Shown here in pieces: positions 340-61,930 of a stretch of 64,000 nt of DNA. Below the pieces are notes generated by a model. It ran no database searches. It worked only from the letters and a program-made list of their open reading frames with translations, and was not told the DNA's origin. Both the position numbers and the translations under genes were made by a program. Each line of letters starts with the position of its first letter. Positions within the stretch are counted from its first letter, which is position 1. Source of the stretch: a virus; IMG/VR virus record IMGVR_UViG_3300034137_000024, positions 17,491-81,490 of that record; one strand, written 5' to 3'.

Positions 340-355
340 GTCGTGACGGCACGAT
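340..355 (+). promoter_or_regulatory. Late-type promoter motif GTCGTGAC-GG-CACGAT
   Basis: Matches recurrent consensus, intergenic, points into ORF 403. Confidence 0.6.
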
Positions 356-402
356 CGGCGCTCCATTTGTAACCTCCCGACCACCGCTGACATGACGACC
401 CT

Positions 403-726
403 ATGCCTATCTCACCGTTGGAAGTTCATCCCCAATCGACGTATCCAGTGCGCCGACTGCCGAATCATTGCCGAACCATCGGCCTCCTGCGCGGAGGTCA
501 AGGGCGGCCGTACTTGGGCGAACTTGGAGCCAAGGTCGCGACAGCGGCGCGCCGTGGGCGACCGTCCCTGTTTTCCGTAGAGACGCTGGCCAACGCTTAC
601 GAACTGCGCACCGCCGGCAAGGACTGGCATCGCATAGGCCTGCTGCTCGGCGTCCCCCAAGGACAAATCCACTCAGCGGTGCGCCAGGCCTGTCGCACCG
701 GGATCAGCCAGCGTCTGGCCGGATGA
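403..726 (+). CDS. Hypothetical protein, possible C-terminal HTH
   Basis: RGRP...LANAYELRTAGKDWHRIGLLLGV resembles an HTH; overlaps next gene by 4 nt. Confidence 0.5.
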   Translation: MPISPLEVHPQSTYPVRRLPNHCRTIGLLRGGQGRPYLGELGAKVATAARRGRPSLFSVETLANAYELRTAGKDWHRIGLLLGVPQGQIHSAVRQACRTGISQRLAG

Positions 727-1022
727 CTCCGGACGAACTGCGGGCATCCGCCAGGGACTTGCGCAGGCTCGCCGCGTACGCCGACAGCCGAAGCGGCCGC
801 CTCCATGATCTGGATCGGGCTGCGGAATATGAGCGGCAAGCGATCGCCATGGAGCAACCCGACACCGTCACCCCTGCCGCCATCGATGACGACGACGGCG
901 AGGCTGAATTTCAAGCAAGGCTGAGTGCCACCCGGGCAAGTGAAGCTCTGGCGCGATCAGCGCGAATCCGTAAAGCAATGAGACAGATGGAAGCCTATCT
1001 AGGCCTCCCGCATAAGGACTAA
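723..1022 (+). CDS. Hypothetical phage protein
   Basis: ATGA overlap with previous gene; MTPDELRASARD... Confidence 0.65.
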   Translation: MTPDELRASARDLRRLAAYADSRSGRLHDLDRAAEYERQAIAMEQPDTVTPAAIDDDDGEAEFQARLSATRASEALARSARIRKAMRQMEAYLGLPHKD

Positions 1023-1025: not shown

Positions 1026-1559
1026 ATGACCACTGCAACGCCAACGAATACCCCTATTGCCGCCCCTCGACTCTGGGCGGTTCACTTGAAAGGCGTCGAC
1101 CAGGTCATCGCCATGCTCGACTTTGATGCCGCGACCAAGTGGGCCGACGACACCAACACCGAGTGGGCGCGCCAATCGGCCCGGCACCAACAGACCATCC
1201 CTGGCTTCGAGGCAGTCGTCGTCCACTCCCCGTGGGCAGGCGAAGAACACTACCGAAACTGCGCGCAGATACTTACCCAAGTCATGCAAGCCGGCGACGC
1301 GATGCTGAACAACCTACGTCATCAAGCCGCCAGGCTGCACGCTGACGCGATCCGCTACTACTTCCACCGCGACGTGTCCCTCAATCCAGCGTTGGAAGAA
1401 ACGCTGCAGCCAGTGATGAGCTTTGTGGATGAGTTGGATGAGCCAAAAAACGCCACCGAATACGACGCCTTGATGGACCGCTGCATCCAAGCCGCCCGAC
1501 AAGCAACCTTGTGGCCACCAGCAGCGCCAGAGGCCCCGGCAGTAGAGGTGGCCGCCTAA
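1026..1559 (+). CDS. Hypothetical phage protein
   Basis: Tightly packed operon, normal composition. Confidence 0.75.
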   Translation: MTTATPTNTPIAAPRLWAVHLKGVDQVIAMLDFDAATKWADDTNTEWARQSARHQQTIPGFEAVVVHSPWAGEEHYRNCAQILTQVMQAGDAMLNNLRHQAARLHADAIRYYFHRDVSLNPALEETLQPVMSFVDELDEPKNATEYDALMDRCIQAARQATLWPPAAPEAPAVEVAA

Positions 1560-2506
1560 TGAGCCTGACATGCTGCATTCAACTGCACGGTAAATTCTCA
1601 GCCGGCGAGCGCGGCGTCATCACTGACCCCGTTTTGGTCTTTGCAAGCGACTACACCAATATGGTCGAGAAACTGAGCGCCGAGCGAGACCATTGGAAAG
1701 CCAACCATGACTGCCTGCGCGAACGCGCTCGGTTGCTTCGCGAGCGTCTGGATATGCCAGTCGAGCGCGTCCAGGCATTTGACCAGGTGCAGCACCTGCA
1801 GCAAGAAGTCGCCACGCTGGTACAGACGGTCAATGAGCTGAGCCAGGCGCGCACCGCTTTGGAGATCGAGAACGGCGCCATTGAATCGCAACTGGTAGAG
1901 GCTCGCGCCCTGGCCAGTCAGTACAGCCAAGCCAACAGCCTGCTGTCCCGCACCGTGCAAATGCTGGAAAGCCAAGTCAAGACTTTGCAGGCGCATCCGC
2001 AAAGCTACCAGACCGGCTACAACGAAGGTCGGCGCCTGGGCAGCAAGCTGGCGCACCAGGAACGCAGATCGTTGGGCACCCGATTGGGCGAGCTGCAAAA
2101 ACACGCCGACAGCCTCGAACTGTTCCTTGGCAACAGCGATAAGTACTGCCGCTCACTGGAAATACGCATCGACCGCACCGCCGCGTCCATTCAGCAGGCG
2201 TTTAACGCCAAGTTTGACGAGTGGCACCCGCTGCTCGAAGAAGCTCTGCGCTGCGCGTACAACCCGTCACCGGAAAACGTCCTTTGGAGCCACATCACCA
2301 AGGGCGGTCACTATGCGCTGATCGGTGAGTCCAGCGGCGCCGGCACCAAGCGCGGCGAACACCTGCTGGTCTACCGCGACACCCGAAACGGTGCGCTGTA
2401 CCACCGCACACATTTCGATTTCCGCAGCAGCATGGTCGCAGTCGACCTAAAAGCTCGGGACCAAGCCCTCGGCCAGCCAGCCACCGACATGAGGAAAACC
2501 GCATGA
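1559..2506 (+). CDS. Coiled-coil phage protein with C-terminal DUF1653-like domain
   Basis: TAATG coupling; C-terminal W.H.KGGHY...LVYRD...G.LYHR motif. Confidence 0.7.
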   Translation: MSLTCCIQLHGKFSAGERGVITDPVLVFASDYTNMVEKLSAERDHWKANHDCLRERARLLRERLDMPVERVQAFDQVQHLQQEVATLVQTVNELSQARTALEIENGAIESQLVEARALASQYSQANSLLSRTVQMLESQVKTLQAHPQSYQTGYNEGRRLGSKLAHQERRSLGTRLGELQKHADSLELFLGNSDKYCRSLEIRIDRTAASIQQAFNAKFDEWHPLLEEALRCAYNPSPENVLWSHITKGGHYALIGESSGAGTKRGEHLLVYRDTRNGALYHRTHFDFRSSMVAVDLKARDQALGQPATDMRKTA

Positions 2507-2862
2507 AACTGACAGTACTGACCGGCTTTCGCGAGAACGTCGCGCAGCAGCTGCGCGCCACTGCGGTCGACCCCTTTTGCACCGGAGTTTCGATCGAGGG
2601 CGCCGGCACGCTGAAAGACCTGCTGCTCGACGGCTACCTCGCCATCAAGGCCCAGCCCGAGGATCAGCACATAGGTAAGGCCCTACACGCAGCCGTTTCG
2701 GCGCTGCATCTGGGTGACAGCAGCGACTATGAAGCCGCGTTGTGGGACGTCATCCGCAACATCGCGCCGCACCTGGTTGACCAGATGGAGGTCGACTCCG
2801 GCAGCGTCTACGCCCTGACCCTACCAGAAGTCCAGACCGAGGCAGAGCCGGAGGCTGTATGA
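2503..2862 (+). CDS. Hypothetical phage protein
   Basis: ATGA overlap in operon. Confidence 0.7.
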   Translation: MKLTVLTGFRENVAQQLRATAVDPFCTGVSIEGAGTLKDLLLDGYLAIKAQPEDQHIGKALHAAVSALHLGDSSDYEAALWDVIRNIAPHLVDQMEVDSGSVYALTLPEVQTEAEPEAV

Positions 2863-3710
2863 ACGACGTGGCGCGCTACACGCGATCCGATATCGTCTAC
2901 TCAGGCTTGGAGCATGAGCATCGCCATTTCGTCGATGCTCGTGATTATGACGCGCTGCTCTCCAGGGTTCAGGCCTTGGAGGGCTACAAAGCCGCTATCA
3001 TCAGTACCCTGATGATCAACCACGGCATGAAAGCCGAGCACGAAACCGATCCGCGTCAGGCCTTGGCTGACCTGGTGCATATCGAGTGCGAAATGGCGCT
3101 TGATGCGCGGATCAGCGAACGCGCCCGGCTGACCAGGTACTCCCGGCCGGCCGTCTCTTGGGTATTCATTCAGACACCTCCTGATTGGCAGCTTGTACCT
3201 TGCGAACCAACCCCGCAAATGGTGGCTGCGCCGTTTGCAGGCAAGGTCGAAGCCCAGTGCGTCAGTACGCAGACGCGTAGCCGTCAGCAGATGGCCGAGA
3301 ACTACAAGGCCATGATTGATCACGCGCCAGTGAGCACGATGGGGGATATTTACGCCTACAACGGCGTGCCGGCGCGCAAGAAGGCAACCCAGATGGTCGA
3401 TGGCCTGATGGTGCTGAGCCTGCGCGATGTAGGCTGGAATGCCGCACTGGACCTAATCGCCGGGCAGACCGAACTGGAGCTGACCGACGCGCTCAAGCGC
3501 ATCCTGAACTTTCCCGAGTTCGTCCTGCAGGTCGTCGCGGCGGGCATGCAGAACCGGGGCATTGCCGACTTCGGCGGCATACTCGACCGGTCCAAGGTTC
3601 TGCACTGGATGCTGAGCATTTATCTGCACCACGGCGAAAACTGGGTAGCGATCGCCGCTCACGAACTGGGCGAAGGCTCGGCCTCGGAGATGCTGAGGCG
3701 CCATCAATGA
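2859..3710 (+). CDS. Hypothetical mosaic phage protein
   Basis: ATGA overlaps; DWQLVPCEPT..MV.A segment typical of mosaic early proteins. Confidence 0.7.
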   Translation: MNDVARYTRSDIVYSGLEHEHRHFVDARDYDALLSRVQALEGYKAAIISTLMINHGMKAEHETDPRQALADLVHIECEMALDARISERARLTRYSRPAVSWVFIQTPPDWQLVPCEPTPQMVAAPFAGKVEAQCVSTQTRSRQQMAENYKAMIDHAPVSTMGDIYAYNGVPARKKATQMVDGLMVLSLRDVGWNAALDLIAGQTELELTDALKRILNFPEFVLQVVAAGMQNRGIADFGGILDRSKVLHWMLSIYLHHGENWVAIAAHELGEGSASEMLRRHQ

Positions 3711-3886
3711 ACACCATGCGCGAGCGGTTCGAGCTCACTTATTGCCGGCAGCAGGGGCACGTCGTCCGATCGCGCCTGCTGTTCCGCCGCAACGCTGATG
3801 GGCGCTACAGCAACCGCGCCCTGGAATTGACGTGGTGCCGCTACAAGCGCGGCCACGTCCAGCAACTCACACAAGGGGCCGCATAG
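3707..3886 (+). CDS. Small hypothetical protein (59 aa), not in ORF track
   Basis: ATGA overlap; MNTMRERFELTYC...TQGAA*. Confidence 0.55.
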   Translation: MNTMRERFELTYCRQQGHVVRSRLLFRRNADGRYSNRALELTWCRYKRGHVQQLTQGAA

Positions 3887-3891
3887 TGCCG

Positions 3892-4290
3892 ATGATTCAG
3901 ATTGCCCGGTACCGGCACAGCAAACAGTTCAAATCGGGCCTGCCGGCGATTGTCGGGCCGCGCTCTTACACCAACGCCCAGCGTCGCTGGCAGGCGCGTA
4001 TTTCGGTCAACGTCCCGACCAGGCGAATCGAGATTCACGACCAGGACTTACAGGCCGTCGACACCGGCGGCGTCTTCACTGTGCCCGACTCGCCCGTCGC
4101 GCTGGTGTACGAGAACAGGCCCGAGCAGAGCATGACCGTGAATATCGGCGTTCTGAGCTACTCGCAGGCCTGCGAGGTCATCGCCGATCAGATGCAGGAG
4201 CTGCTCCGCGAGTGTCCGGACTGGACGGACTTTGAATGGCAGGTCTGGACGGAAAAGGGCAAGGCCCCGAAGGTTCGGAGGGCAGGATGA
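3892..4290 (+). CDS. Hypothetical phage protein
   Basis: In operon; MIQIARYRH... Confidence 0.65.
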   Translation: MIQIARYRHSKQFKSGLPAIVGPRSYTNAQRRWQARISVNVPTRRIEIHDQDLQAVDTGGVFTVPDSPVALVYENRPEQSMTVNIGVLSYSQACEVIADQMQELLRECPDWTDFEWQVWTEKGKAPKVRRAG

Positions 4291-4466
4291 AGATCGAGGA
4301 AGACATCTGGGAGTGGCGCCCCGCTGGCAAGGCCTGTACAGGCAAGCACGTCTGGGTAGTATTCCTGAGCCACCGTATCCGTGAGTGCTGCGACTGTGGC
4401 GCCCGGGAGGATCTGCGGGCCGACTTTGGCATCGGCCCCCGGATCCCCAAGTCTAAAGCAGCATGA
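4287..4466 (+). CDS. Small Cys/His protein (59 aa)
   Basis: ATGA overlap; C..KH.W...RECCDCG. Confidence 0.55.
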   Translation: MKIEEDIWEWRPAGKACTGKHVWVVFLSHRIRECCDCGAREDLRADFGIGPRIPKSKAA

Positions 4467-4475
4467 CCAAGTTCC

Positions 4476-4949
4476 TCAAGGCGATGCCATCGCGGAGTTG
4501 AATGCGTTTTGCACAGCTTGGGAAGCGTATTTATTCGAGTCGTGCCCTATGTCGTTGACTTCCCCAAGGTCGGAAATCCCAACAAACTTTTTCTCGGCAT
4601 CGCCAACGTCGCGTTGGCGCACTGTCCAATGGGCTCTCCCCCGAACATCCCGATCCTCATGCCCACCTTGAGCACATGGTGTACCCCATCCTTGGCGGGT
4701 GTATTTGCCCGAGTAATTTGCATAAATATCTGCATTCTTGCCGCTGATAGTGACATCGACGCTGTTGATGGTGATATCCGCACGAAACGTATCGCCCGGG
4801 CAGCCTAGAAGCGTCTTCTGTCGACCGTCGTATGAGGCTGATCCAGTTCGATGCGTTAATCGATCCTTCACAGAATCCTCTGCGTCGGTCGCAAAGATGG
4901 GCAGGGAAATAGTCGACAGCAGCAGAAGCGCACATGCGAGCGTTTTCAT
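4476..4949 (-). CDS. Secreted protein of unknown function (moron)
   Basis: MKTLACALLLLSTISLPIFA signal peptide; lower GC. Confidence 0.7.
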   Translation of the reverse strand: MKTLACALLLLSTISLPIFATDAEDSVKDRLTHRTGSASYDGRQKTLLGCPGDTFRADITINSVDVTISGKNADIYANYSGKYTRQGWGTPCAQGGHEDRDVRGRAHWTVRQRDVGDAEKKFVGISDLGEVNDIGHDSNKYASQAVQNAFNSAMASP

Positions 4950-9232: not shown

Positions 9233-9703
9233 CTAAAACGGGATATCTGGGTCGAATTGGTCCTTTTGCTGCTGCGGTTGCGGCGCGGTGCGCTGTGGCG
9301 GCTGCGAACATTGTGGACCTTGCGACTGGCCAGCATTGTTTCCGTCACGACCTTGGCCCTGCGGACTGGTGAGCATTTGCATGGTGCCTTGCATGTCCAC
9401 GACGATCTCGGTGGTGTAACGCTTGACGCCGTCTTTTTCCCACTCCCGAGTCTGCAACTTGCCCTCGATATAGATGCTGGAACCCTTTTTCAGGTACTGG
9501 CCAGCGATCTCGGCGACCTTGCCGAACATGCTCACGCGGTGCCATTCGGTTTTTTCAACCTTCTGACCCGATTGCTTGTCCACCCAGCGCTCGCTGGTTG
9601 CCAAGCTGATATTGGCTACCGCGTTACCGTTAGGTAAGTTGCGCACTTCCGGGTCTTGCCCGAGCGTGCCGACCAAAATCACCTTGTTAACTGAACCTGC
9701 CAT
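9233..9703 (-). CDS. ssb: Single-stranded DNA-binding protein
   Basis: [24 protein letters not shown], acidic DIPF tail. Confidence 0.97.
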
Positions 9704-11284: not shown

Positions 11285-11325
11285 TGGGTACCGATCGCCA
11301 TGGAATCGGCCCCGCTGGCTCTACA

Positions 11326-11583
11326 TCAGTCGGCGCCGAGTTCTCGTTTTAACTTGTCTTCTTTTGCGGCGACCCACGCAGTCATCTGGTCCAGCTTTGC
11401 GATGGTTGCTGGCACTTCTTCACGCCAACGGTCCGGGGTCGCCCGACCAATCTTGGTGTCACGACAAATGTCCGTGAGGGTCAGGCCCATGCGCTCGGCA
11501 CGGCGCTGGATGTCATCAAGGCGAGCAATAAAGAGCTCGTACATGGAGGGAGGCTGTGGCTGGTTGCGACGGCGGGATGGCAT
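11326..11583 (-). CDS. Cro-like HTH regulator
   Basis: LTLTDICRDTKIGRATPDRW; heads the leftward operon at a divergent AT-rich spacer. Confidence 0.7.
   Translation of the reverse strand: MPSRRRNQPQPPSMYELFIARLDDIQRRAERMGLTLTDICRDTKIGRATPDRWREEVPATIAKLDQMTAWVAAKEDKLKRELGAD
11450..11465 (-). promoter_or_regulatory. Late-type promoter motif GTCGTGAC-AC-CAAGAT inside the Cro-like gene
   Basis: Exact consensus match; points to the helicase/SSB/primase operon. Confidence 0.45.
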
Positions 11584-14936: not shown

Positions 14937-15212
14937 TGTGACCAAAAAGCGGTATCGCGCACCGCATACGGGTTTTTCGGGAAATTCCGAATAACCCTCC
15001 CCGCCTACCGGATTCTCCGGTAACTGACATGCCGTTACCCTCGGTTCCTCCGCTGGCCAAGACCGCTATAATCTGGCTACAAGCAGTGATGTACATTGCT
15101 CATATTTGATTAACAACCATTGCAATCACTGGGCGTTATAGGGATTATGAAGCAACACGACGAGGCTGGCAGCGTCCAGAAGCTGCGCCCGAAACGACTT
15201 TGAGGAGTCACC

Positions 15213-16379: not shown

Positions 16380-16395
16380 GTCGTGATGGAAGACT
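16380..16395 (+). promoter_or_regulatory. Late-type promoter motif variant GTCGTGAT-GG-AAGACT
   Basis: One mismatch; intergenic, upstream of the TraR-like gene. Confidence 0.5.
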
Positions 16396-17829: not shown

Positions 17830-18047
17830 TTGACGAATACCTTGCTCATAACGGTGCCCAGCACAGAGGCACCCACGGCCGACATCAGTCCGTAAACGAT
17901 CATTTTGATCGGGGCAAACTCGGCCTTAGTGACCAGCAGCTCTATCGTCTTCTGCATGGCTGCCATTTGCTCCTGCAGGCGCACCACCTCCATTTCGGTC
18001 TCGCGCACTACTTCCTCTAGTCGGCGGTTCGGTCGTTCAATTTGCAT
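17826..18047 (-). CDS. Small coiled-coil plus C-terminal TM protein (holin/antiholin candidate)
   Basis: IVYGLMSAVGASVLGTVM TM segment. Confidence 0.65.
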   Translation of the reverse strand: MQIERPNRRLEEVVRETEMEVVRLQEQMAAMQKTIELLVTKAEFAPIKMIVYGLMSAVGASVLGTVMSKVFVK

Positions 18048-22046: not shown

Positions 22047-22051
22047 GCAGC

Positions 22052-22085
22052 CTCCGGTTAATTAACCGGAGTCTGCTGTCACGAC
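22052..22085 (-). promoter_or_regulatory. Late-type promoter GTCGTGAC-AG-CAGACT overlapping a 20-bp palindrome that covers the RBS
   Basis: Motif 22070-22085; palindrome CTCCGGTTAATTAACCGGAG 22052-22071; GGAGG 22055-22051. Confidence 0.75.
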
Positions 22086-26250: not shown

Positions 26251-26266
26251 AGCATGGCGTCACGAC
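26251..26266 (-). promoter_or_regulatory. Late-type promoter GTCGTGAC-GC-CATGCT (leaderless)
   Basis: ATG 7 nt after the hexamer. Confidence 0.75.
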
Positions 26267-31853: not shown

Positions 31854-31869
31854 ATTGTCCAGTCACGAC
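31854..31869 (-). promoter_or_regulatory. Late-type promoter GTCGTGAC-TG-GACAAT
   Basis: Consensus match right after a terminator. Confidence 0.7.
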
Positions 31870-35312: not shown

Positions 35313-35359
35313 ATCGTCGTGTCACGACGCTGGCGGCTGTTTCATCGTGACAAGAAGAT
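35313..35359. promoter_or_regulatory. Divergent pair of late-type promoters, both leaderless
   Basis: (-) GTCGTGAC-AC-GACGAT 35328-35313, ATG 35306; (+) ATCGTGAC-AA-GAAGAT 35344-35359, ATG 35366. Confidence 0.75.
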
Positions 35360-41630: not shown

Positions 41631-42523
41631 TAAGAGCCTCGTTTCGTGAGTCTATTTTTCAAATCGCAAAGGAAGCGATTCACCCATTCAGTGGCCTCGT
41701 CTCCCGAGAGCCCGAATTGCTTGGTCGAATAGGCGATCAATCCCGCAGAGGTCTGAATCTTGGCGTCACGACCCCGCACGGCGGCCGACAGGCGATCGCG
41801 GAAGTCGAAGTAGGATTGAGGGATGCCGCCCATTGACTGAACGCGCAGGGCACTGCCGCCGGTGAGCGTTGCCGAGTCGGTGCCGTAACCGGCATCCAGC
41901 GACTTGAGGAACGCAAACCCGTTCGGGGTCCAGCTTTTCGCCAGCGCTCCGAAAGGAACGGTGGCAATACCGCTGACATGCTGGTTAACCGGCTGTTGAG
42001 AAATGCCGATGTTCGTCCAGCGGACCTTGCTGACAACGCCGATCTTCTGGCCAGTTTTGGGGTCCGTTTGAACCGATTTCGCCAGAACGGCACCACCTAC
42101 GCTGGGGTACCAGCGGCGTGGAGGGTTCAGCTGAGTCATCGACTCCCAAACTTGGTTTGCGCGCTCGGCCATAGGCGTGTCGCCCTTGTACAAGCGCGCT
42201 TTGACGAAGGTTGAGGCGCCCTTGACCACCACCTCATCGGGTACACCGATCTCCCAGAGCTCTGGTTGCGTGATGCCGTGGGCTTTAGCAACGGAGGGCA
42301 TCGACATATGGTTGATGTCAATGTTCCCGTAGCGAAGGAAGGTCTCGGCCGAGTCTTCAAGGGCCTTTGCCAGCACGATCTCGTCTTGCTGGTCACGGGC
42401 CTCGCGGGACGCTTCCAAGTAAATAAAGCGCTCGCCTTTCTCTTCACTGGGGCGCGCTTTGAACATGCCCTCAATGCTGAGGAAGTCGGGGATATGGGCC
42501 AGTAGGCTTTCGTCTTGATTCAT
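41630..42523 (-). CDS. Prohead protease
   Basis: AS.E.RDQQ.EIV, GNI..NH, SVGG; between portal and capsid genes. Confidence 0.82.
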   Translation of the reverse strand: MNQDESLLAHIPDFLSIEGMFKARPSEEKGERFIYLEASREARDQQDEIVLAKALEDSAETFLRYGNIDINHMSMPSVAKAHGITQPELWEIGVPDEVVVKGASTFVKARLYKGDTPMAERANQVWESMTQLNPPRRWYPSVGGAVLAKSVQTDPKTGQKIGVVSKVRWTNIGISQQPVNQHVSGIATVPFGALAKSWTPNGFAFLKSLDAGYGTDSATLTGGSALRVQSMGGIPQSYFDFRDRLSAAVRGRDAKIQTSAGLIAYSTKQFGLSGDEATEWVNRFLCDLKNRLTKRGS

Positions 42524-42530: not shown

Positions 42531-42610
42531 AGTCTGTTGTCACGACTAGGGCACCGGCCCAGAGGGCTGCGGGGTGCAATTCACGGTTTGAGCGGTCGTG
42601 ACGCGAGGAT
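42531..42610. promoter_or_regulatory. Divergent pair of late-type promoters
   Basis: (-) GTCGTGAC-AA-CAGACT 42546-42531, ATG 7 nt later; (+) GTCGTGAC-GC-GAGGAT 42595-42610. Confidence 0.75.
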
Positions 42611-44197: not shown

Positions 44198-44213
44198 AGC
44201 TTGTTGTCACGAC
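44198..44213 (-). promoter_or_regulatory. Late-type promoter GTCGTGAC-AA-CAAGCT
   Basis: Intergenic consensus match. Confidence 0.7.
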
Positions 44214-45615: not shown

Positions 45616-45652
45616 CAGGCAATTAGGCTGTCACGACCTGAGCCTGCGCCAT

Positions 45653-47356: not shown

Positions 47357-47409
47357 AGCATGGCGTCACGACGCCCCCGGTACGGCCCCGGCCGTCGTGA
47401 CGACAGGCT
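47357..47409. promoter_or_regulatory. Divergent pair of late-type promoters (portal / dUTPase)
   Basis: (-) GTCGTGAC-GC-CATGCT 47372-47357, ATG 6 nt later; (+) GTCGTGAC-GA-CAGGCT 47394-47409. Confidence 0.75.
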
Positions 47410-48106: not shown

Positions 48107-48122
48107 GTCGTGACCGCAAAGT
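48107..48122 (+). promoter_or_regulatory. Late-type promoter GTCGTGAC-CG-CAAAGT facing non-coding DNA
   Basis: Consensus match right after the dut stop codon. Confidence 0.6.
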
Positions 48123-52061: not shown

Positions 52062-52173
52062 AGCCCCGACAGTCGCGTGTCCATTGCTCAAATTTGAGGT
52101 AGGGCGTAGGATCAGAGATGCACCTACCCCAAGATGGGGGTTGCATGCTACCTACCCATAAGGGAGAGCCACG

Positions 52174-52344: not shown

Positions 52345-52776
52345 TTGTATCCACGCATTGAAGTAACTCAGCAGTTCATGCAAGACGTCCCTGATTGGGG
52401 CGTCATCTACACCGCCTTCTACAACTACAAACTTTGCGGAATTCTCCCGGACAACTTCGGCCGCGACGCTTACATCCATCCCCGCCCCCTGTATCACCTC
52501 CAGGTCACGACGAATCCGATCATCATCGCCCGATGGTCCAAGACCGACGTGATCTTCAAGCGCACAGTTTTGAAAGACGTCGAAGCTGAACATGACCATT
52601 GGCTGCTTTACGCCCATGACGTGCCCGGCAACCGATACCTTTTGCTGGCCATCTTTGGCCCAAATGCCCACCAAGACAAAGACCGCGACAATTACCTGCG
52701 GACTTTGAAGGTCGAAGTCGTTGACCCATGGATGACGGGGACCCTCACCTGCTACGAGCCGCCGGAAGACGACTGA
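52345..52776 (+). CDS. YafO-family toxin
   Basis: FGRD, HWL.YA.....RYLLLAI..P.AH. Confidence 0.75.
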   Translation: MYPRIEVTQQFMQDVPDWGVIYTAFYNYKLCGILPDNFGRDAYIHPRPLYHLQVTTNPIIIARWSKTDVIFKRTVLKDVEAEHDHWLLYAHDVPGNRYLLLAIFGPNAHQDKDRDNYLRTLKVEVVDPWMTGTLTCYEPPEDD

Positions 52777-53650: not shown

Positions 53651-54841
53651 CTATGAGGAATCACTGCCAGGATCAAAGTCCCCTAAAGGCAAGGGCACCC
53701 CCGGTGGGGCAGGTACCTGATGTACACCATAAGGAACATCGGGAGCAGCGACGGCGGAGCGCCCCTTAAACGCGATCACAGCGGCGAATTTCTCGACCTC
53801 TTCGATGATGTGGCGGTGAGCAGCCACGGTCTGCCGTGCAAGGCCCGCCATGCGCGCTATAGCGACGCTGGTGAGCTCTTGGCCCCGCTGCTGCAATAGA
53901 CGGCAAGCGGCCCTCACCTTCGATTCTGTGGCTTGATGGCGCAGGTCGTGGGTGCGCTTGGCTGACATGCGCTGACGCTCGGCCAGTGGCAGGCTGGAAT
54001 CCAGCGCCATGGCGCCACGGTGGACGCGAGAACTGCCGTAATACTTGCTCCACGTCCAGTTCGCCACGGACTTGACCGTCGCACGCAGCGAGGACTCAGG
54101 CAGGTTCGTAGACATGCCCCACTTGGCGAAACCGTTGTTGTTGTGCGCGAACGCACGCAGCAGCGCCAGAAACGAGGAAAAACACCCCGCTTCGCGCTGC
54201 CGGTTAACGATGCTGTATGCGTAATAGCGCAGCTGCTCGAACATCAAGCAGTGCCGGGAGTGACTGACCTCGACCAGAGAGCGGCGGACTGCCCACGGCT
54301 TCGTCGTCTCAAGTTCGACGTATTCAGCCAGGTCGCCGAGATCGTAGACGTGGTCGTGCAGATCCATCGTCGCCCACCACGGATGGCCGGGCGTCTTGGC
54401 GACAGGGCCGCTGTGGTATTCGAGATCCGCGTCCAGCACCAGGGCAAACGCCTGATACACGGCTTTCATGTAGTTGATGGGCGCGTGGCGAGCGTTGTCC
54501 GACGTGCAGACGGGGGCAATGGCGTAGTAGAGGTGGCAATGGCCGTTGTTGCGGTTGCGCACGATCATGTTGGGCGCAGGCAGGCCCTTCTCTTCCCATA
54601 TCAGGGAGTTCGCATGATCGAGGTCGAAGACCAGCCACGACGTCATCCCCGGGCGGTTAACCTGCATATAGGGGTAGTTGACGGCGTACTCCCGCGGACG
54701 AATCCGGGTTGCCGTCTTGTCATCGCTGCAGCGGGCAAGATACGAGGCTTCCTCAAGAACACGGCTCAGGGCCGATCCTTTCAGGTAGTAACGCTCGCCC
54801 GCAGGCTGGACCTTTTCGAGTTTTTTCGGCTTTACCGACAT
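53651..54841 (-). CDS. repA: Plasmid replicase RepA (ColE2/pPT23A type)
   Basis: YMQVNRPG..SWLVFDLDH, LP.PN..VRNR..GH.HL.YAI, KTPGHP.W, C-terminal HTH. Confidence 0.92.
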   Translation of the reverse strand: MSVKPKKLEKVQPAGERYYLKGSALSRVLEEASYLARCSDDKTATRIRPREYAVNYPYMQVNRPGMTSWLVFDLDHANSLIWEEKGLPAPNMIVRNRNNGHCHLYYAIAPVCTSDNARHAPINYMKAVYQAFALVLDADLEYHSGPVAKTPGHPWWATMDLHDHVYDLGDLAEYVELETTKPWAVRRSLVEVSHSRHCLMFEQLRYYAYSIVNRQREAGCFSSFLALLRAFAHNNNGFAKWGMSTNLPESSLRATVKSVANWTWSKYYGSSRVHRGAMALDSSLPLAERQRMSAKRTHDLRHQATESKVRAACRLLQQRGQELTSVAIARMAGLARQTVAAHRHIIEEVEKFAAVIAFKGRSAVAAPDVPYGVHQVPAPPGVPLPLGDFDPGSDSS

Positions 54842-54845
54842 ACCC

Positions 54846-54864
54846 TGCCGCCAAAACGGCGGCA
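54846..54864 (-). promoter_or_regulatory. Hairpin in the repA leader
   Basis: TGCCGCC-aaaac-GGCGGCA, 4 nt before the ATG. Confidence 0.5.
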
Positions 54865-55012
54865 AGCAGACGGACGGACGCAAAAAATAATGCGCCCACA
54901 CTTGCACACGGATGCGCAGGTATCCATAATCTCACCTAGCTGTTACGTGAGCACTACAACGGTTTTCCGCCAAGAAATCTGACGTTGAGTGCTCATTTTT
55001 TTTGCCCCGAGT

Positions 55013-55228: not shown

Positions 55229-55378
55229 TATCTAAATCCTCGGTACTACCGTTTCACCCGTCGTGACGGGCTGGATATCAAGATAGGCCGTGCCCACAGC
55301 CACGTCAAGCGCTGGAGCCCTTGTTTTATATGACTTTGCGGGAACCGAAAGGTGGTTACAGGTAGTTACCCAGAGTTA

Positions 55379-56428: not shown

Positions 56429-56499
56429 AGGGGCATCTCCTGTTGAGTTGCCCCTATATTACTCAAATTTGATTAATCATCTAGTGGTTTCTAAGTTAA

Positions 56500-57306: not shown

Positions 57307-57788
57307 CGTTGTGCCCCAGGCTTGCGACCCAGCAGCACGTCAACAGCATCGTCTACGACTTCAGTCAGGCCGGCCTGCACCTCTTCCTCAGTCATCGCCC
57401 CCTCTTCGAGGTTGATCGAGGCCTCCAGCGCCTGCAGCGCTAGGAAATTGAAATAGGCCTCGGCCGGCGTCGCGTAGTCGGCGACATCCGGCGTCGTTAC
57501 GCGCAGGTAAATGCCCAGGCGGTGCGGGCTGTTCCAAGGCTGGGCGGCATAGCTGCTGTTTTCACCCATGACGATCTGTGCGTTTCGGGCGCACATAGCC
57601 GCGATCCGGGCCGATGAGGCATCGCCATCGCCGTCCTGGTGGAACTTGGCGCGCTCGGTGAACACTGCGCCCAGGAACTCGCGCACCAGGTGGTTTATCA
57701 CCTGGGGGTCGCCCAGGTAGTTATTGGTTTCGATGCCGTCTACGGCGGTCTGGAGGCCGTCGCGGCGGTTTGCTTCAAGATTGTCCAT
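57303..57788 (-). CDS. Acidic hypothetical protein (candidate immunity/partner protein)
   Basis: Overlaps both the kinase-ART gene and the Nudix gene. Confidence 0.65.
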   Translation of the reverse strand: MDNLEANRRDGLQTAVDGIETNNYLGDPQVINHLVREFLGAVFTERAKFHQDGDGDASSARIAAMCARNAQIVMGENSSYAAQPWNSPHRLGIYLRVTTPDVADYATPAEAYFNFLALQALEASINLEEGAMTEEEVQAGLTEVVDDAVDVLLGRKPGAQR

Positions 57789-60700
57789 GTTTCCCCTTGT
57801 TCGCTTCCAGTTCGGAAACGTAGGTCTCGTCGGGTGGCAGCATCAGCACGTCGAGTTCAATTCGTTCCTTACCTTTGTGCGGGTCGAAGACCTTCTGGCA
57901 GGACATAATAACGAACCGCTGCCCGGGCAAGGTTGTGATCTCTTTTTCACTGCTGAAAGACCCCGAACCAAAGCTATCAACGGCCTTTGCCCCCTTCGCG
58001 TAACGAATCCGGATCCGGTCAGCCCCGAAACCCGAGGTGCCATTAGGGACGTACGAGCAGCACATCGAGCCGGGGTTTTGAAACACCGTGCCAGGCTGAG
58101 CCTTGAGCATCTGCTGCTTCATATCCCCCGAGAAGTTGATCCACTTATAAATCTCGAAGCCTTCGGGTTTTTCGGTAGCGAACGAATAAGCATCGAGGAC
58201 CATGCCGGTCGCGTCCCGCCCATCGCTTGTGACCATTAAACCATCACGGAAATTGTCGTTGTAGGACCCTGACGACTGAATCCCATTAATAAATCGCTTT
58301 ACCAGGCGATTCGACGCCAGGCCCGCATAAGCCAGCTTTGCAGACGACCGCATGGCCTCCGTTAACGACGGTGTGCCGACAGGGCTGCTTTGGAAGGCCA
58401 AGGTCTTGCTACCGCCTGCAGGAAGCAGCGCGACCGCCGGTTTGGTGTGGCCCAGGGCGATCCAGAACGCCAAGCGGGAGTTGGCGTGTACCTTGTTGAT
58501 GGTGACGCCGTATTTCGCGCTCTGGAAGGCGTCTGAAACCTTCTTGAGGCCGACAGCCATCACCGATTTAAACGCTTTCAGGCGCTCCGGCGGGTGCGCA
58601 ATGTAGTTCAGCGTCGACACCAAGTCCGACCAATACGCCTTTACATGCTGCGACGGGTGCTGCTCGATATGCTGGCTGCCCGCCGCCTCCCCTGTTTCCT
58701 TGTCCACGGCGTCAAAGTGATAGTCCTTCAAGGCAATCAAGTTGCCTTTGGACGCGAACGCCAATAGATCCTGCTCGGCCTTGAGGTTGGTCTCGTTGAC
58801 GTGCGGTTTCGACGACAGGCCGTTACCGGCACCTTTCCAGTTGTGGAAGTCGTGCGGTTGCGGCAGGTCGCTTGCCTTTACGTCGAGCTTGGTCGGGTCT
58901 GGCTTCGGCTTGGCCTTGGATGCTGCGGCCTTTTTGACAGCCTTGGGGAACTGTTCGAGCAAATTCTCTTTGCGAGCAATCAGCGTCTCCACCAGGTGCG
59001 CTTTTTTCGCCAGGTCACCGGGGCCGTGCTTCATCACCAGGTCGTAAATCTCGTCGTCAGACACCGCGACGACCTTAGCCACCGATGCGGTAATGTCGGC
59101 CTTCGTCAGCTTGCCGAAGACCACCGAGGCCGCATGGTTGATTTTCGGGTCGCGCATGGTGTCGATTTCGGTCACTTGGTTTCCGAAAGCCTTCTTACCG
59201 CCCATGGCGCGATATTCAAGGGCGCCGCCGGCGTCCACGCGCACGGCCTTGCCATTGGCATCCAGCTGCAGGTTGTCGTATTCCAGGCCAACCGCGTCCC
59301 AGTTACCCAACCAGGCGTCGACAGCGAAACCAGCGCTGGTACCGTCTGCCTTTGCCATTTCAGCCGGCGGTGCCTTGGTCACCTCCTCCCATTTGCTGGC
59401 AATACCGATCTGCCCGTTATGGGTAACCAACTTGCAGTTCTGTCCAGTTACCCCTGCTGCAGCGTACAGCTGGGCCGCCAGAACTTCGGACTTGGCCATG
59501 TCCTCGTCCTTGGGAAATTTGCAGTACCAAGCCACGCCATCGGGGTCGACATACTTGCCGCCGGGATTCGAGCCGAGCTGACCGCCGACCTTCGACCAGG
59601 CATCCATCGATGGCGGCTTATCCCCCGCTGGAGCAGCTGGCGCCGTTGGTGCAGCAGCCTTGCCCTTGCCCTTCGGCACAGGACCTACGGCAGCCTTTAG
59701 CGCCTCAACATAGTGATACAGGGCGACGTGCGACCCCTCGGGCATGCTGAGGAAGCCGGTAATTTTTACCGATCCGCCCCCCGGCCTCGGCAAGGTGACA
59801 ATCGTCTTACCTGATTTCTTCATCACCTTTGTGGTGCCGACAAGCGCAGCTGGGCCTTCGGCCTTGACCTTTTGCAGCAGCGTGTGGATGCAGCCAGCGA
59901 CCACCTCGGGCTTTTTGAAATCCGTCAGATGCGGCAACGGCACCTGGGCGACCGCATACATGGCCGCTTCGTGGGGATTATCGACGCCAGGAACCTTGTG
60001 CCAATGGCCGTCTTTGAAAACGAGCATTCCATCGGCGCCCTGTTTCATTTCACCCTCAAGCGGCCCGGCAGGATCCGGTGAAGCTGATGCAGGTTTTTCC
60101 GGTGCAGGGGTGGCGGCAGGGGCAGCAGGGGCAGCGGCCGGGCTTTCTTTCAACGCGGCGATTGCGGCGGCGGCGATCTTCGCCTGCTTCTTTCCGTACG
60201 TGTTGCTGCCAAACTTCATCGCCTCGAGGCCGGCCACGTCGCCGGCGTAAGCCAACGCCTTGATCTTCTCGAGCTTGCCGTTATGGCTCTTGGCGTTGGT
60301 GTTGCTCTCGGGCAGTAGCAGGCCATCCCAAGGCATTTTGTCGAGGTTTACGTGAGAGGGTGACTGGCCGGAACTGGCGGTAACCTTCTCCGGTTCCACA
60401 GCGTTCGGGGCGGGCTCCGGCGCCTTGGCGACAGGCGCCGGGGAGGGCGCAAGCGCCGGAGGTGGGGCGAACTTTTGCGGGTCGAGCTCGGAAAGGGCCT
60501 GCTGCGCGTAGACCTGCGCAGCCGGGGAGTACGTCATGCCATCCACTTCTTTGCCGCTGGCAATGTCATGGATCGAATCGGTCTGGAGCTCCGCGTAGTA
60601 ATGGTTGATGGCGTCCTTTTCGGCCTCCATGGCGTCGCCCGGATCCACGTCGCCGAAGTGCTTGGCGGCCGGGTTCATCGCCGCAACCTTGGCCGGATCG

Positions 60701-61908
60701 TGCGGCAGGTGATCCTCATGACCCCACGCGGCGTAAATCTGGTGGATTGCCGCCTGATGCAGGGCAATCAGCTTTTTCGAGTTCGCCGTCTTCCCCGCCC
60801 AGGTCTGCCCCTTGAGCTTGTGTCCGTCTGCCTTGAGGTCTTCCAGGGATACAGCATCCTGATCATGCGCCAAGTCCAGTATCTGCTGGGCTACCTTCTC
60901 GTAATGAGATTTGACCCCGGTGGTGGTTTTCCCCTCGGCGAAGTCGGGCATTTTCAGGGCGCCGGCAGCCGCAGAACTTTCGGTAACTGCCGGTGGTTCC
61001 CCCGCGTTACCGCTGGAGTTAGCCGCGGATATCTTTGAGGCGACCAAAGCGGCGTGGTGAACCGGAGTGCCTTCGGCGTAGGTGTTGAGGAAGTAGTTAA
61101 ACGCCTCTTTATCACCGTCCTCGATCGCTTCGTCCAGAGCGGCCTGTATCTGGGGCGTCATGTGGCCAACGCTGGTCCCGCCGGTTTTCGACTCGCGGGC
61201 TGAATCGGACGCGGCCACGTCTGCAGGCTTAGCCTCGGCGCCGGGCATTGATGCCAACTGACCGGCCTTCGCCTGTTTCACCGCGTCGAAGTCAGCAGTG
61301 CTGGCGAACTTGGAGAGGTAAATCTGCCCGTACATTTGGGCTGCCGACACGCTGGCCGAGTTCTTGATCTTGTCCAGGAGTTCCAGCGCTTCCGGGTTAG
61401 AACTGGCGGTAACTGCGGGCGGTTCCTTCTGGTTGCCGGCAGGGGAGGCCTTTACAGCGGCGTGTTCGCCAGGCTTTTGCCCGGCCGATACCTGGTGCTG
61501 GCTGCCCATTTTACCCAAGAGGAAGTTAGCCACTGCTGCCTGTTTCTTGCCGTGGGTATTCACGCCGTAGCCGTGACCAAGGATGGCCGTGGCGTCGCCG
61601 TTTTCGCCATGGGCGAGCAGCTTGGGCAAATGAACGTCGTTGAAGGCTGCCATTTCCTTGTTGGTGGCGGCCTTGTCCGTGGGGTACTTGAGCTTGTCGA
61701 TCTGTTCGGCCGACAAGGATATAGGGCTGTGCTTACCACCCGCCTCGGGGTGCGCTGCTTGGGGTGCGCCTTTGGGTGCCGGTTTCTCCTGCTTGATAGC
61801 GTGCCATCTACCCTGCAATAGGTAATAGCCCGCTTGGTGGGCAATTTTTGACTTGATCAGCAACAGAACTCGGGGAGCCGCTGCCGTGGGGGCGGTAGGT
61901 ATATTCAT
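57775..61908 (-). CDS. Polyvalent protein: linker-rich N-terminus, HipA/PI3K-like kinase, C-terminal ADP-ribosyltransferase
   Basis: GSNPGG..WYCK, SEVLA, DAWLGNWD, RVDAG; IYKW, SMCCS, SEKE, LPGQRF. Confidence 0.8.
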   Translation of the reverse strand: MNIPTAPTAAAPRVLLLIKSKIAHQAGYYLLQGRWHAIKQEKPAPKGAPQAAHPEAGGKHSPISLSAEQIDKLKYPTDKAATNKEMAAFNDVHLPKLLAHGENGDATAILGHGYGVNTHGKKQAAVANFLLGKMGSQHQVSAGQKPGEHAAVKASPAGNQKEPPAVTASSNPEALELLDKIKNSASVSAAQMYGQIYLSKFASTADFDAVKQAKAGQLASMPGAEAKPADVAASDSARESKTGGTSVGHMTPQIQAALDEAIEDGDKEAFNYFLNTYAEGTPVHHAALVASKISAANSSGNAGEPPAVTESSAAAGALKMPDFAEGKTTTGVKSHYEKVAQQILDLAHDQDAVSLEDLKADGHKLKGQTWAGKTANSKKLIALHQAAIHQIYAAWGHEDHLPHDPAKVAAMNPAAKHFGDVDPGDAMEAEKDAINHYYAELQTDSIHDIASGKEVDGMTYSPAAQVYAQQALSELDPQKFAPPPALAPSPAPVAKAPEPAPNAVEPEKVTASSGQSPSHVNLDKMPWDGLLLPESNTNAKSHNGKLEKIKALAYAGDVAGLEAMKFGSNTYGKKQAKIAAAAIAALKESPAAAPAAPAATPAPEKPASASPDPAGPLEGEMKQGADGMLVFKDGHWHKVPGVDNPHEAAMYAVAQVPLPHLTDFKKPEVVAGCIHTLLQKVKAEGPAALVGTTKVMKKSGKTIVTLPRPGGGSVKITGFLSMPEGSHVALYHYVEALKAAVGPVPKGKGKAAAPTAPAAPAGDKPPSMDAWSKVGGQLGSNPGGKYVDPDGVAWYCKFPKDEDMAKSEVLAAQLYAAAGVTGQNCKLVTHNGQIGIASKWEEVTKAPPAEMAKADGTSAGFAVDAWLGNWDAVGLEYDNLQLDANGKAVRVDAGGALEYRAMGGKKAFGNQVTEIDTMRDPKINHAASVVFGKLTKADITASVAKVVAVSDDEIYDLVMKHGPGDLAKKAHLVETLIARKENLLEQFPKAVKKAAASKAKPKPDPTKLDVKASDLPQPHDFHNWKGAGNGLSSKPHVNETNLKAEQDLLAFASKGNLIALKDYHFDAVDKETGEAAGSQHIEQHPSQHVKAYWSDLVSTLNYIAHPPERLKAFKSVMAVGLKKVSDAFQSAKYGVTINKVHANSRLAFWIALGHTKPAVALLPAGGSKTLAFQSSPVGTPSLTEAMRSSAKLAYAGLASNRLVKRFINGIQSSGSYNDNFRDGLMVTSDGRDATGMVLDAYSFATEKPEGFEIYKWINFSGDMKQQMLKAQPGTVFQNPGSMCCSYVPNGTSGFGADRIRIRYAKGAKAVDSFGSGSFSSEKEITTLPGQRFVIMSCQKVFDPHKGKERIELDVLMLPPDETYVSELEANKGKHGQS

Positions 61909-61914
61909 GACGCG

Positions 61915-61930
61915 ATTCTTGCGTCACGAC
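61915..61930 (-). promoter_or_regulatory. Late-type promoter GTCGTGAC-GC-AAGAAT (leaderless)
   Basis: ATG 6 nt after the hexamer. Confidence 0.78.

Follow-up and report, generated by a model that had tools for sequence, protein, structure and literature searches.

Late genes of phages T4 (gp55/gp33), Mu (C) and P2 (Ogr) need a phage factor that frees the host RNA polymerase from -35 recognition. Phage P1 has 11 late promoters with a 9-bp inverted repeat that is bound by Lpa (PMC10695390). For Lalka27a, a phage of Thermus, the late starts mapped by sRNA-seq fall 6 nt past a special -10 element and most late transcripts are leaderless; the phage encodes no sigma factor or RNA polymerase, and its authors propose a phage factor, still to be identified, for the late promoters (10.64898/2026.04.20.719267).

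The element described here lies in a phage of ~85 kb (virus record, 84,651 bp) and was analysed in a 64,000-nt stretch of that record, referred to below as the window, to which all coordinates refer unless the genome is named. Judging from its sequence, GTCGTGAC-N2-NANNNT is very likely a class of promoter confined to a single lineage of temperate, myovirus-like phages of 80-95 kb. No RNA sequencing runs with this DNA were found, the sole run containing it being a biocrust DNA run. What was observed directly is the motif with its geometry, its conservation and its confinement to phage DNA; promoter activity, timing and start site are predicted from these.

A bipartite motif and its sites in the window

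The exact octamer GTCGTGAC was found 20 times in the window versus 2.7 expected from shuffled sequence; shuffles contained at most seven copies and none of 100 reached 20. The initial annotation had counted 19 copies and estimated 2-3 by chance; the enrichment it described holds. Across the whole 84,651-bp record there are 24 copies, 19 of which belong to a complete signal of 16 bases, consisting of the octamer, 2 nt and a -10-like hexamer NANNNT (0.07 expected under a Markov model). Within the window the hexamer lies exactly 2 nt downstream of 16 octamers: the 15 complete sites listed initially were all recovered, and 41765(-) had been missed. Two more sites, proposed at 16380(+) and 35344(+), are real and carry the one-base octamer variants GTCGTGAT and ATCGTGAC, respectively. 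Four window octamers without the hexamer, at 9344(-), 45630(-), 52504(-) and 55260(+), are probably inactive or chance copies. The sites are as follows.

340..355 (+): complete motif, GTCGTGAC-GG-CACGAT, leader 36-47 nt; small ORFs of a rightward unit follow (392-580 or 403-726, then 1026-4808)
9344..9351 (-): octamer only, inside the SSB gene; probably not a promoter
11450..11465 (-): complete motif within the 85-aa HTH-like ORF 11326-11583, 165 nt upstream of helicase/SSB/primase genes
16380..16395 (+): variant GTCGTGAT-GG-AAGACT, immediately 3' of the integrase stop codon
19099..19114 (-): complete motif just after a terminator-like hairpin with a T-run; precedes, with a 26-nt leader, the lysis cassette of holin (18752-19087) and endolysin (18037-18750)
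22070..22085 (-): complete motif ahead of a 151-aa ORF and of the tail-fibre gene 19788-21581; predicted start site and ribosome-binding site are both overlapped by a strong hairpin
26251..26266 (-): complete motif, ATG 26243 7 nt past the hexamer, predicted leaderless; 434-aa virion protein, then baseplate genes
31854..31869 (-): complete motif after a terminator-like hairpin; heads a 114-aa ORF, an 865-aa tape-measure-like protein and a 506-aa protein; Touem01 and PHB04 have the orthologous site
35313..35328 (-): complete motif, ATG 35306 6 nt past the hexamer, predicted leaderless; 274-aa protein, then tail sheath/tube genes; orthologous promoter kept in 7 relatives, including Mecenats66
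35344..35359 (+): variant ATCGTGAC-AA-GAAGAT, back to back with 35313..35328 (-); ATG 35366 6 nt past the hexamer, predicted leaderless; 282-aa protein; orthologues carry ATCGTGAC or GGCGTGAC
41757..41772 (-): complete motif within the coding region of the prohead protease; the scaffold-like gene 41013-41630 begins 126 nt downstream, and the major capsid gene 39531-40991 is downstream too; the closest relative (G002) has a site at matching distance
42531..42546 (-): complete motif, ATG 42523 7 nt past the hexamer, predicted leaderless; prohead protease
42595..42610 (+): complete motif, divergent partner of 42531..42546; heads the 219-aa HNH/endonuclease-like ORF 42643-43302
44198..44213 (-): complete motif; heads the 225-aa ORF 43491-44168
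45630..45637 (-): octamer with CCTAAT (hexamer position 2 not A), intergenic, 239 nt upstream of a 380-aa head-module gene; uncertain
47357..47372 (-): complete motif, ATG 47350 6 nt past the hexamer, predicted leaderless; portal protein
47394..47409 (+): complete motif, paired divergently with the portal promoter; heads the dUTPase-domain ORF 47441-48106 (+)
48107..48122 (+): complete motif directly 3' of the dUTPase stop codon
51717..51732 (-): complete motif, ATG 51710 6 nt past the hexamer, predicted leaderless; large terminase
52504..52511 (-): octamer only, antisense within a YafO-like toxin gene; probably chance
55260..55267 (+): octamer with no hexamer; probably chance
61915..61930 (-): complete motif, ATG 61908 6 nt past the hexamer, predicted leaderless; 1377-aa protein, then 161-aa and NUDIX genes

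A logo of the 24 octamer copies held no information at positions -20 to -1 before the octamer, and after it showed C at +10 in 16/24, A at +11 in 21/24 and T at +15 in 21/24, giving CANNMT-like hexamers. In promoter numbering these are A at -11 and T at -7, in 21/24 copies each, the pattern of a sigma70-type -10 element. Since nothing is conserved upstream of the octamer, there is no -35 box; a TTGACA-like box 16-18 nt upstream was absent from the logo. An extended -10, with TGn abutting the hexamer, is absent as well: the octamer's TG lies 4-5 nt before the hexamer instead of 1-2 nt. The bipartite promoter first proposed is supported, with a sigma70-type -10 hexamer, an upstream element spanning about -22 to -15, and the -35 box missing. 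The GTC-N2-GAC dyad operator suggested along with it was discarded because, at orthologous promoters, the outer positions vary (GTCGTGAT, ATCGTGAC, GGCGTGAC, TTCGTGAC) while CGTGA is invariant, and orientation is strict. The core is asymmetric, CGTGAY, or in full CGTGAY-N3-A-N3-T. A different repeat, ATTGCTCAAATTTGATTAA, resembles an operator set.

Placement also agreed with the first description, 14/16 complete window sites being intergenic and pointing into the next gene. The two that sit within ORFs are 11458 and 41765. The former, 11450..11465 (-), is kept in G002 and is not present in Dolphis or PHB04; because its octamer encodes Cys-Arg-Asp in frame, its promoter function is doubtful, and coding constraint could be the reason for its retention. 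Motif orientation matches the downstream gene, and divergent genes carry back-to-back pairs.

Predicted promoter function and leaderless geometry

At seven window sites a long ORF opens with its ATG 6-7 nt past the hexamer; the portal, terminase, prohead protease and 1377-aa proteins are encoded by ORFs of this set. With this spacing the predicted start site coincides with the A of the start codon, which would produce leaderless mRNAs. Among 117 sites from nine genomes, 40 (34%) had an ORF-opening ATG 6 nt (31 sites) or 7 nt (9 sites) past the hexamer, counting ORFs of at least 50 aa with the ATG at exactly either distance, for which the control rate was 2.8%; a second mode of ATG distance was seen at 20-35 nt in the same set. 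The promoters of the portal, protease and 274-aa genes are kept across relatives, and their leaders alternate between leaderless and Shine-Dalgarno-led forms. Leaderless translation in Proteobacteria is considered rare. The geometry described here predicts that it is frequent for essential virion genes, and suggests that many annotated starts should move to the leaderless ATG.

This geometry also bears on a reading of the octamer as something other than a transcription signal, such as an operator for a repressor, a site linked to methylation or restriction, or a signal for RNA processing or packaging. The genome encodes DNA methylases and many phage repeats are operators, but a function of that kind is very improbable given the fixed 2-nt spacing to the A-11/T-7 hexamer, the fixed start-codon distance of 6-7 nt at one third of sites, and an orientation that tracks the downstream gene with back-to-back pairs at divergent genes; moreover, it is the separate repeat ATTGCTCAAATTTGATTAA that looks like an operator set.

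We favour a promoter, for which the following mechanism is proposed. The hexamer would serve as an ordinary sigma70-type -10 (A -11, T -7) read by the host RNA polymerase, and a phage-encoded factor recognising the asymmetric CGTGAY at about -20 to -15 would replace the missing -35 contact. Transcription would start 7 nt past the hexamer, so that at about one third of promoters the start would be the A of the start codon, and transcripts from the remaining promoters would carry a leader of 20-35 nt that includes a ribosome-binding site. Units for lysis, tail fibre, baseplate, tail, head, portal and terminase, together with a few accessory ones, would be under this signal.

The placement of window sites confirms that the motif heads lysis, tail, baseplate, head, portal and terminase units, and because lysis, virion and packaging units (with a few accessory ones) lie behind it, the motif probably acts as the middle/late switch. 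The regulon was called late at the outset; this fits the lysis and virion units, whereas the dUTPase gene, the HNH-like gene and several other units are also headed by the motif, and the timing is predicted. Lambda-type Q antitermination from a single late promoter was rejected, given at least 16 dispersed sites, many of them abutting start codons; no Q-family Pfam match was found among the scanned proteins.

Spread of the motif and candidate readers

All 25 near-complete IMG/VR relatives carry the motif, with 4-26 copies each (reversed-pattern control, 0-1). Cultured members of the group, which grow on Pseudomonas, Bordetella, Aeromonas, Yersinia, Enterobacter and E. coli, gave 16 copies in Touem01 (host Pseudomonas syringae), 14 in Dolphis (P. 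putida), 17 in PHB04, 10 in ST4 and 14 in ECML-606-1 (E. coli). Mecenats66 has only ~2 copies and a remnant before the protease gene, and was for that reason dropped as a clean motif-negative control and is not decisive as one. The motif was also found in prophages: in Microvirga lupini, a co-oriented prophage cluster of 63 kb, adjoining a homologue of the zinc-ribbon protein described below, accounts for 11 of the 20 copies in the genome, and nine are scattered over the remainder of its 4.9 Mb. In the other four host genomes searched, motif counts were near the reversed control overall. Phages of Alpha-, Beta- and Gammaproteobacteria share the element unchanged. A search of 20 kb against phage records for near-identical DNA returned no match. 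The claim of a new regulon stands insofar as no publication describing the motif in this lineage or related phages was found, and is to be tempered in that an analogous late-promoter class has been published for the distantly related Thermus phage. For these widespread, little-studied ~90-kb temperate phages and prophages, a sequence-defined candidate late regulon is now at hand.

These distributions weigh on whether the host holoenzyme alone could read the 16-bp signal, as an unusual extended promoter that is active constitutively or early. The -10 part is indeed a normal sigma70-type element, and a phage sigma factor was searched for and none was found. However, the TG of the octamer is at -18/-17, as opposed to -15/-14 in an extended -10; host chromosomes show no enrichment outside prophages, the signal being specific to the phage; the same element serves phages of three proteobacterial classes; and lysis and virion genes need delayed expression in a temperate phage, and this one has an integrase. 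Recognition by the host enzyme unaided is thus improbable, and a phage-encoded reader is preferred.

None of the activators first suggested for this role survived. ORF 42643-43302 is HNH/endonuclease-like and ORF 403-726 matches nothing, and both were rejected as having no homologue in any motif-bearing relative; a TraR-like activator found no counterpart, there being no TraR/DksA domain anywhere in the genome. Sigma70 region 2 and region 4 models (PF04542, PF04545, PF08281) gave no significant match in this genome, and PF04542 matched in only 1/31 lineage genomes; a sigma factor as divergent as T4 gp55 would go undetected in these searches. Also set aside were the replication genes and the DUF7696 protein, which are not universal among the compared relatives, and no homologue of P1 C1 was found. 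A further candidate lies outside the window.

Genome 10790-11329 (-): candidate reader of 179 aa, two zinc ribbons predicted, encoded 6 kb to the left of the window

By inference, the 179-aa protein is our candidate for the reader of the motif, somewhat less likely than not. Its gene opens an operon beside a long divergent control region, and the arrangement recurs in Dolphis and PHB04, where the gene again comes first behind a long intergenic region between divergent genes. Apart from virion genes, it alone has a homologue in each of the eight relatives compared, Mecenats66 among them (tblastn, E below 0.01, which misses short divergent proteins). Homologues were present in 30/30 lineage records searched and in ECML-606-1; Lalka27a and phiMa have neither homologue nor motif. 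Within 768 kb around 47 bacterial homologues there were 86 motif copies versus 3 for the control, a co-occurrence confounded by shared ancestry, and the copies accompany homologues even at loci with none of this phage's other genes inside 10 kb. The family has eight invariant cysteines and comprises 919 clusters at 50% identity.

The protein itself gave no Pfam or PHROG match, and its model (pLDDT 84) matched nothing in the PDB (Foldseek E above 1, best VIA Z 2.7), while a search of AlphaFold DB returned only its own family; because of these results, DNA or polymerase binding is a candidate function only. Some longer homologues show weak N-terminal winged-helix matches; one homologue carries the name ArsR-family regulator. 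In this genome no motif precedes the gene. In Burkholderia sp. 8Y and Paraburkholderia DGU8 the homologue is itself behind a motif copy, which fits both autoregulation and its being merely a target gene.

The motif could equally be a phage promoter read by another phage protein, a possibility to be taken seriously, the options being a conserved virion-module protein (for example the 282-aa, 274-aa, 211-aa or 380-aa one), a fast-evolving small early protein missed by tblastn or a very divergent gp55-like sigma. Consistent with this, the zinc-ribbon protein has no recognisable DNA- or polymerase-binding fold, Mecenats66 retains a 35%-identical homologue with the motif almost lost, and the tblastn threshold overlooks short divergent proteins. 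Yet the virion-module proteins named sit behind the motif themselves and for this reason cannot start the cascade, and sigma70 region 2 is absent from 30/31 lineage genomes. A single-sequence search found the 85-aa HTH-like protein (11326-11583) in 17/30 relatives but not in the other 13, which bear the motif, and it was rejected as the main candidate. Also against another reader, motif copies accompany zinc-ribbon homologues at loci that lack other genes of this phage nearby.

Should the zinc-ribbon protein be the reader, it may offer a new route to retarget bacterial RNA polymerase. Tentatively, and with somewhat less than even confidence, we propose that the two-zinc-ribbon family could be a new class of promoter-specificity factor, retargeting the host enzyme to -35-less promoters via CGTGAY at -20 to -15 and driving a largely leaderless late regulon in phages and prophages of Alpha-, Beta- and Gammaproteobacteria.

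Comparison with known late-promoter systems

The system resembles that of P1, likewise a temperate myovirus with a ~90-kb genome and many scattered late promoters, in that a -10 hexamer is paired with a short conserved element immediately before it and a -35 box is missing; in P1 a phage activator reads that element. The likeness extends to sequence, the LPpac box of P1, ATGTGACTT, being reminiscent of the motif here. However, P1 boxes are palindromic, of the AAGTNACTT type, and stand at least 4 nt from the hexamer, whereas here an asymmetric CGTGAY lies 2 nt away; the 9-bp inverted repeat near -22, as in the P1 boxes ATGTGACTT and AAGTTACTT, does not occur. A six-frame search with P1 Lpa (E up to 10) revealed no homologue, and hhalign of the zinc-ribbon family against Lpa gave a probability of 0.2%, indicating that the two are unrelated. 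The Lpa-dependent late promoters of P1 depend on host SspA, and P1 late mRNAs are not noted as leaderless, unlike those predicted here.

Lalka27a, whose virion module is distantly related (major capsid protein ~32% identical), shares late promoters without a -35 box, a class-specific element and mostly leaderless transcripts. Its host is Thermus, in which leaderless mRNAs are common. Its signal, a TAGGGT -10 with a conserved C at -25, is not matched by the hexamers here, and conversely its genome has no CGTGAY-N3-A-N3-T site.

T4 late promoters consist only of TATAAATA at -10, read by the sigma-like gp55, while the targets of Mu C and P2 Ogr are dyads located farther upstream, at around -35 to -55. 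None of these late promoters has an asymmetric element at -20 to -15, the position that CGTGAY occupies in the present phage.

Architecture of the repeated signal

The window covers bases 17491-81490 of the IMG/VR virus record (84,651 bp, 59.5% G+C; CheckV completeness estimate 92%). The record carries a virion module of myovirus type (portal, prohead protease, major capsid protein, tail sheath, baseplate, tail fibre and large terminase), a holin-endolysin cassette, a primase/helicase-SSB-helicase replication block and three further genes:

Window 15213-16379 (+), integrase
Window 53651-54907 (-), plasmid-type Replicase/PriCT protein
Window 52345-52776 (+), YafO-like toxin

This gene content, including the integrase, indicates a temperate phage. 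Some relatives are represented by contigs of ~92-95 kb, others by integrated prophages; since this genome also combines the three genes listed above, the lineage may alternate between an integrated and a plasmid state. DNA of this phage was found in a single sequencing run, a biocrust metagenome. By major capsid protein identity, the nearest cultured relatives are Pseudomonas phage Touem01 (72%), Morganella phage Mecenats66 (66%) and, at 42-45%, Aeromonas ST4, Pseudomonas Dolphis and Bordetella PHB04, with Thermus phages (Lalka, phiMa) farther off (32-35%).

The window contains 20 copies of the octamer GTCGTGAC where 2.7 would be expected, and none of 100 shuffles reached 20, bearing out the excess reported in the initial annotation; the whole record holds 24 copies. 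When these 24 were aligned, the 20 positions 5′ of the octamer carried zero information, in agreement with the reported absence of a -35 box. On the 3′ side, A was found at +11 in 21/24, T at +15 in 21/24 and C at +10 in 16/24, and N2-NANNNT follows 19 of the genomic octamers (Markov expectation 0.07). All fifteen complete sites listed previously were recovered and 41765(-) was added, giving 16 in the window, and the variants at 16380(+) and 35344(+) are real, with one mismatch each. The four octamers lacking the hexamer (9344, 45630, 52504 and 55260; two inside genes) are probably not functional.

The upstream element had been proposed to be a GTC-N2-GAC dyad operator. Orthologous promoters, which provide an unbiased sample of its shape, accept the variants ATCGTGAC, GGCGTGAC, TTCGTGAC and GTCGTGAT, such that the outer bases vary and CGTGA is constant; moreover, the GT at the centre breaks the symmetry, and the element faces the hexamer in one orientation only. 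These observations do not fit a dyad and point instead to an asymmetric core, CGTGAY at about -20 to -15, which would suit recognition by a monomer or a polymerase-bound protein better than by a dimeric operator protein. An extended -10 element was also considered and rejected, because the TG of the octamer lies three positions too far upstream.

Predicted promoter geometry and the genes behind the motif

At seven sites in the window, a long ORF opens with an ATG placed exactly 6 or 7 nt past the hexamer T.

Motif sites with a closely spaced ATG (window coordinates)
Motif 26259(-), ATG 26243, 434-aa virion protein
Motif 35321(-), ATG 35306, 274-aa protein
Motif 35344(+), ATG 35366, 282-aa protein
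Motif 42539(-), ATG 42523, prohead protease
Motif 47365(-), ATG 47350, portal
Motif 51725(-), ATG 51710, large terminase
Motif 61923(-), ATG 61908, 1377-aa protein

Since bacterial polymerases initiate ~7 nt past the -10 hexamer, transcription at this subset of sites would start at the A of the start codon, yielding leaderless mRNAs. Among 117 sites pooled from nine genomes, 40 (34%) have such an ATG (31 at 6 nt, 9 at 7 nt), compared with 2.8% of random positions; a second distance mode at 20-35 nt is accompanied by Shine-Dalgarno sequences. Orthologous promoters of the portal, protease and 274-aa genes retain the 16-bp signal, and their leaders alternate between leaderless and ~25 nt with a ribosome-binding site. 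Additionally, back-to-back pairs stand at divergent genes (35321-/35344+, 42539-/42595+ and 47365-/47394+), and terminator-like hairpins directly precede several sites (19107, 31862). Taken together, the fixed ATG spacing, leader switching, divergent pairs and upstream terminators strongly support a promoter with the hexamer as its -10 element, a geometry that is otherwise hard to explain. Sequence geometry and comparative data thus favour the promoter reading of the initial annotation, which would place the octamer at -22 to -15. In relatives, several gene starts as now annotated would shift to the leaderless ATG.

At site 22078, a hairpin (window 22046-22070 (-); 8 bp, -15.5 kcal/mol, z = -3.9) runs from the last base of the -10 hexamer into the GGAGG ribosome-binding site, covering the predicted start. 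Transcripts from this promoter would miss the 5′ arm and read-through transcripts would sequester the ribosome-binding site, a gating arrangement known from T4.

The motif heads the lysis cassette, the tail-fibre, baseplate, tape-measure and sheath/tube units, scaffold and capsid (internal site 41765), protease, portal and terminase. It also heads accessory units (dUTPase, HNH-like endonuclease, and the 1377-aa protein with a NUDIX gene behind it), as well as units made up of unknown genes (340+, 44206-, 16380+, 48107+). The earlier, inferred label 'late' therefore appears reasonable. Site 11458 is doubtful as a promoter: located upstream of the replication helicase within an ORF for an 85-aa HTH-like protein, it has an octamer that reads in frame as Cys-Arg-Asp, and of the relatives only the closest retains it.

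The dUTPase-domain gene (window 47441-48106 (+); Pfam E = 3e-16) lies between the portal and terminase genes, behind motif 47394+, which is paired divergently with the portal promoter and would drive it. Gene calling by composition had wrongly preferred the minus strand here. For the 1377-aa ORF (window 57775-61908 (-), predicted leaderless start), searches of Pfam and of PDB sequences gave nothing significant, and PHROG gave a single marginal match of unknown function (E = 0.0024); partial homologues occur in Touem01, Dolphis and Mecenats66. One possibility is a virion protein that is injected, comparable to the large ones described in Lalka27a.

A second repeat, ATTGCTCAAATTTGATTAA, recurs with 1-3 mismatches (chance expectation 0):

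Window 15095-15113 (+)
Window 52083-52101 (+)
Window 56458-56476 (+)
Outside the window, genome 12214, 17093, 17110, 81647 and 83337

It is placed ahead of non-late units, among them the integrase and YafO-like toxin genes, and its copies probably form this phage's set of repressor operators. In its first seven bases it is identical to the beginning of the P1 C1 operator at Plpa (ATTGCTCTAATGTATTG); a search of this genome for a C1 homologue was negative.

Phage restriction and a candidate reader

GTCGTGAY-N3-A-N3-T was present in 25/25 near-complete IMG/VR relatives collected via the capsid protein (4-26 copies each; reversed control 0-1), nearly always on the coding strand. Touem01, Dolphis and PHB04 carry 16, 14 and 17 copies (~2 expected), and shorter core patterns gave 10 copies in ST4 and 14 in ECML-606-1; the motif was not found in the Thermus phages Lalka27a and phiMa. 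In bacterial genomes, 11/20 copies in Microvirga lupini are co-oriented within 63 kb and five in Pseudomonas sp. TNT2022 lie within 16 kb; beyond these clusters copies are scattered, and overall counts in other host genomes are near the reversed control. The motif thus appears confined to prophages in bacterial genomes. Its conservation among related phages, the prophage clusters and the near-control host counts mark it as a signal that belongs to the phages and does not represent a class of host promoters.

This genome encodes no canonical sigma factor, and Sigma70 region 2 was found in only 1/31 lineage genomes. A search of this genome for a P1 Lpa homologue or a TraR/DksA domain was negative, so that the TraR-like activator suggested initially is not supported. 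Nor are the other two proposed activators, 42643-43302 (HNH-like) and 403-726 (no matches), which lack homologues in any motif-bearing relative. All ORFs of the genome were compared with eight relatives, namely Mecenats66 and seven motif-bearing phages, of which four differ considerably in their replication modules. Exactly one non-virion gene was common to all eight:

Genome 10790-11329 (-), 6 kb left of the window, 179-aa predicted zinc-ribbon protein

Eight invariant cysteines, forming two predicted zinc sites, are followed by a conserved basic helix. The protein has no Pfam or PHROG match, and its confident AlphaFold model (pLDDT 84) matches no solved structure. The family comprises 919 clusters at 50% identity; some longer members show weak N-terminal winged-helix matches and one homologue in AlphaFold DB bears the name ArsR-family regulator. 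The gene is present in 30/30 lineage records and ECML-606-1, and was not found in the two Thermus phages. In this genome, Dolphis and PHB04 it comes first behind a divergent intergenic region of 0.6-1 kb, where an early regulator would be expected to lie. Dolphis gp82 (MT711888; 90 aa, L129 3747-4019) is a truncated call of the homologue, the match spanning 66695-67207.

The 768 kb flanking 47 bacterial homologues (from Alpha-, Beta- and Gammaproteobacteria, with a few from other groups) contained 86 motif copies versus 3 in the reversed control. Eight of these loci, in which no further protein of this phage had a homologue within 10 kb, held 8 strict copies against ~0.4 expected. The short contigs L138-L140 share an element (L138 3620-5180) encoding DnaB, NinB, DUF968, HNH, DUF7696, a 125-aa ORF, the zinc-ribbon homologue and two small ORFs; there, a single perfect GTCGTGAC-GG-CACCAT lies ~600 nt downstream of the homologue, followed by ~370 nt of non-coding DNA. 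This gene order can be read as lambdoid, resembling the lambda Q/late-promoter layout.

As the product of the sole non-virion gene common to all eight relatives compared, with homologues accompanied by the motif elsewhere, the zinc-ribbon protein is our best candidate reader, on associative evidence partly confounded by common descent. Two observations weigh against it. First, in two Burkholderiaceae loci back-to-back perfect motifs precede a distant homologue: Burkholderia sp. 8Y (L185 9803-10564) and Paraburkholderia sp. DGU8 (L186 2052-2712), so that the gene itself stands behind the motif. The former lies among a restriction-modification system and an IS21 element, shares no other gene with this phage, and may represent either a remnant or another type of element using the same switch. 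Second, Mecenats66 (49% G+C) retains a 35%-identical zinc-ribbon gene despite having only 2 motif copies, which is chance level; one lies at the orthologous 274-aa-gene promoter, and a degenerate remnant precedes the protease gene. With the motif almost lost and the gene kept, Mecenats66 looks like a natural replacement of the promoter system. A TGnTAATAT-like sequence precedes its portal gene.

Relation to known late promoters

Activator-dependent, -35-less late promoters are already known as a kind. By descent, the closest relative is the late-promoter class of Thermus phage Lalka27a, which has a different sequence signal: TAGGGT plus C at -25, leaderless, with starts mapped 6 nt downstream and a phage factor proposed by the authors (10.64898/2026.04.20.719267). 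The closest textbook analogue is P1, whose 11 dispersed late promoters lack a -35 box and combine a -10 hexamer with a 9-bp inverted repeat to which Lpa binds (PMC10695390; annotated P1 record). However, the P1 boxes (ATGTGACTT, AAGTTACTT) are palindromic, in contrast to the asymmetric core here, lie farther from the hexamer and are read by Lpa, which is unrelated to the zinc-ribbon protein; the motif would therefore work in the manner of the P1 late promoters without belonging to their family.
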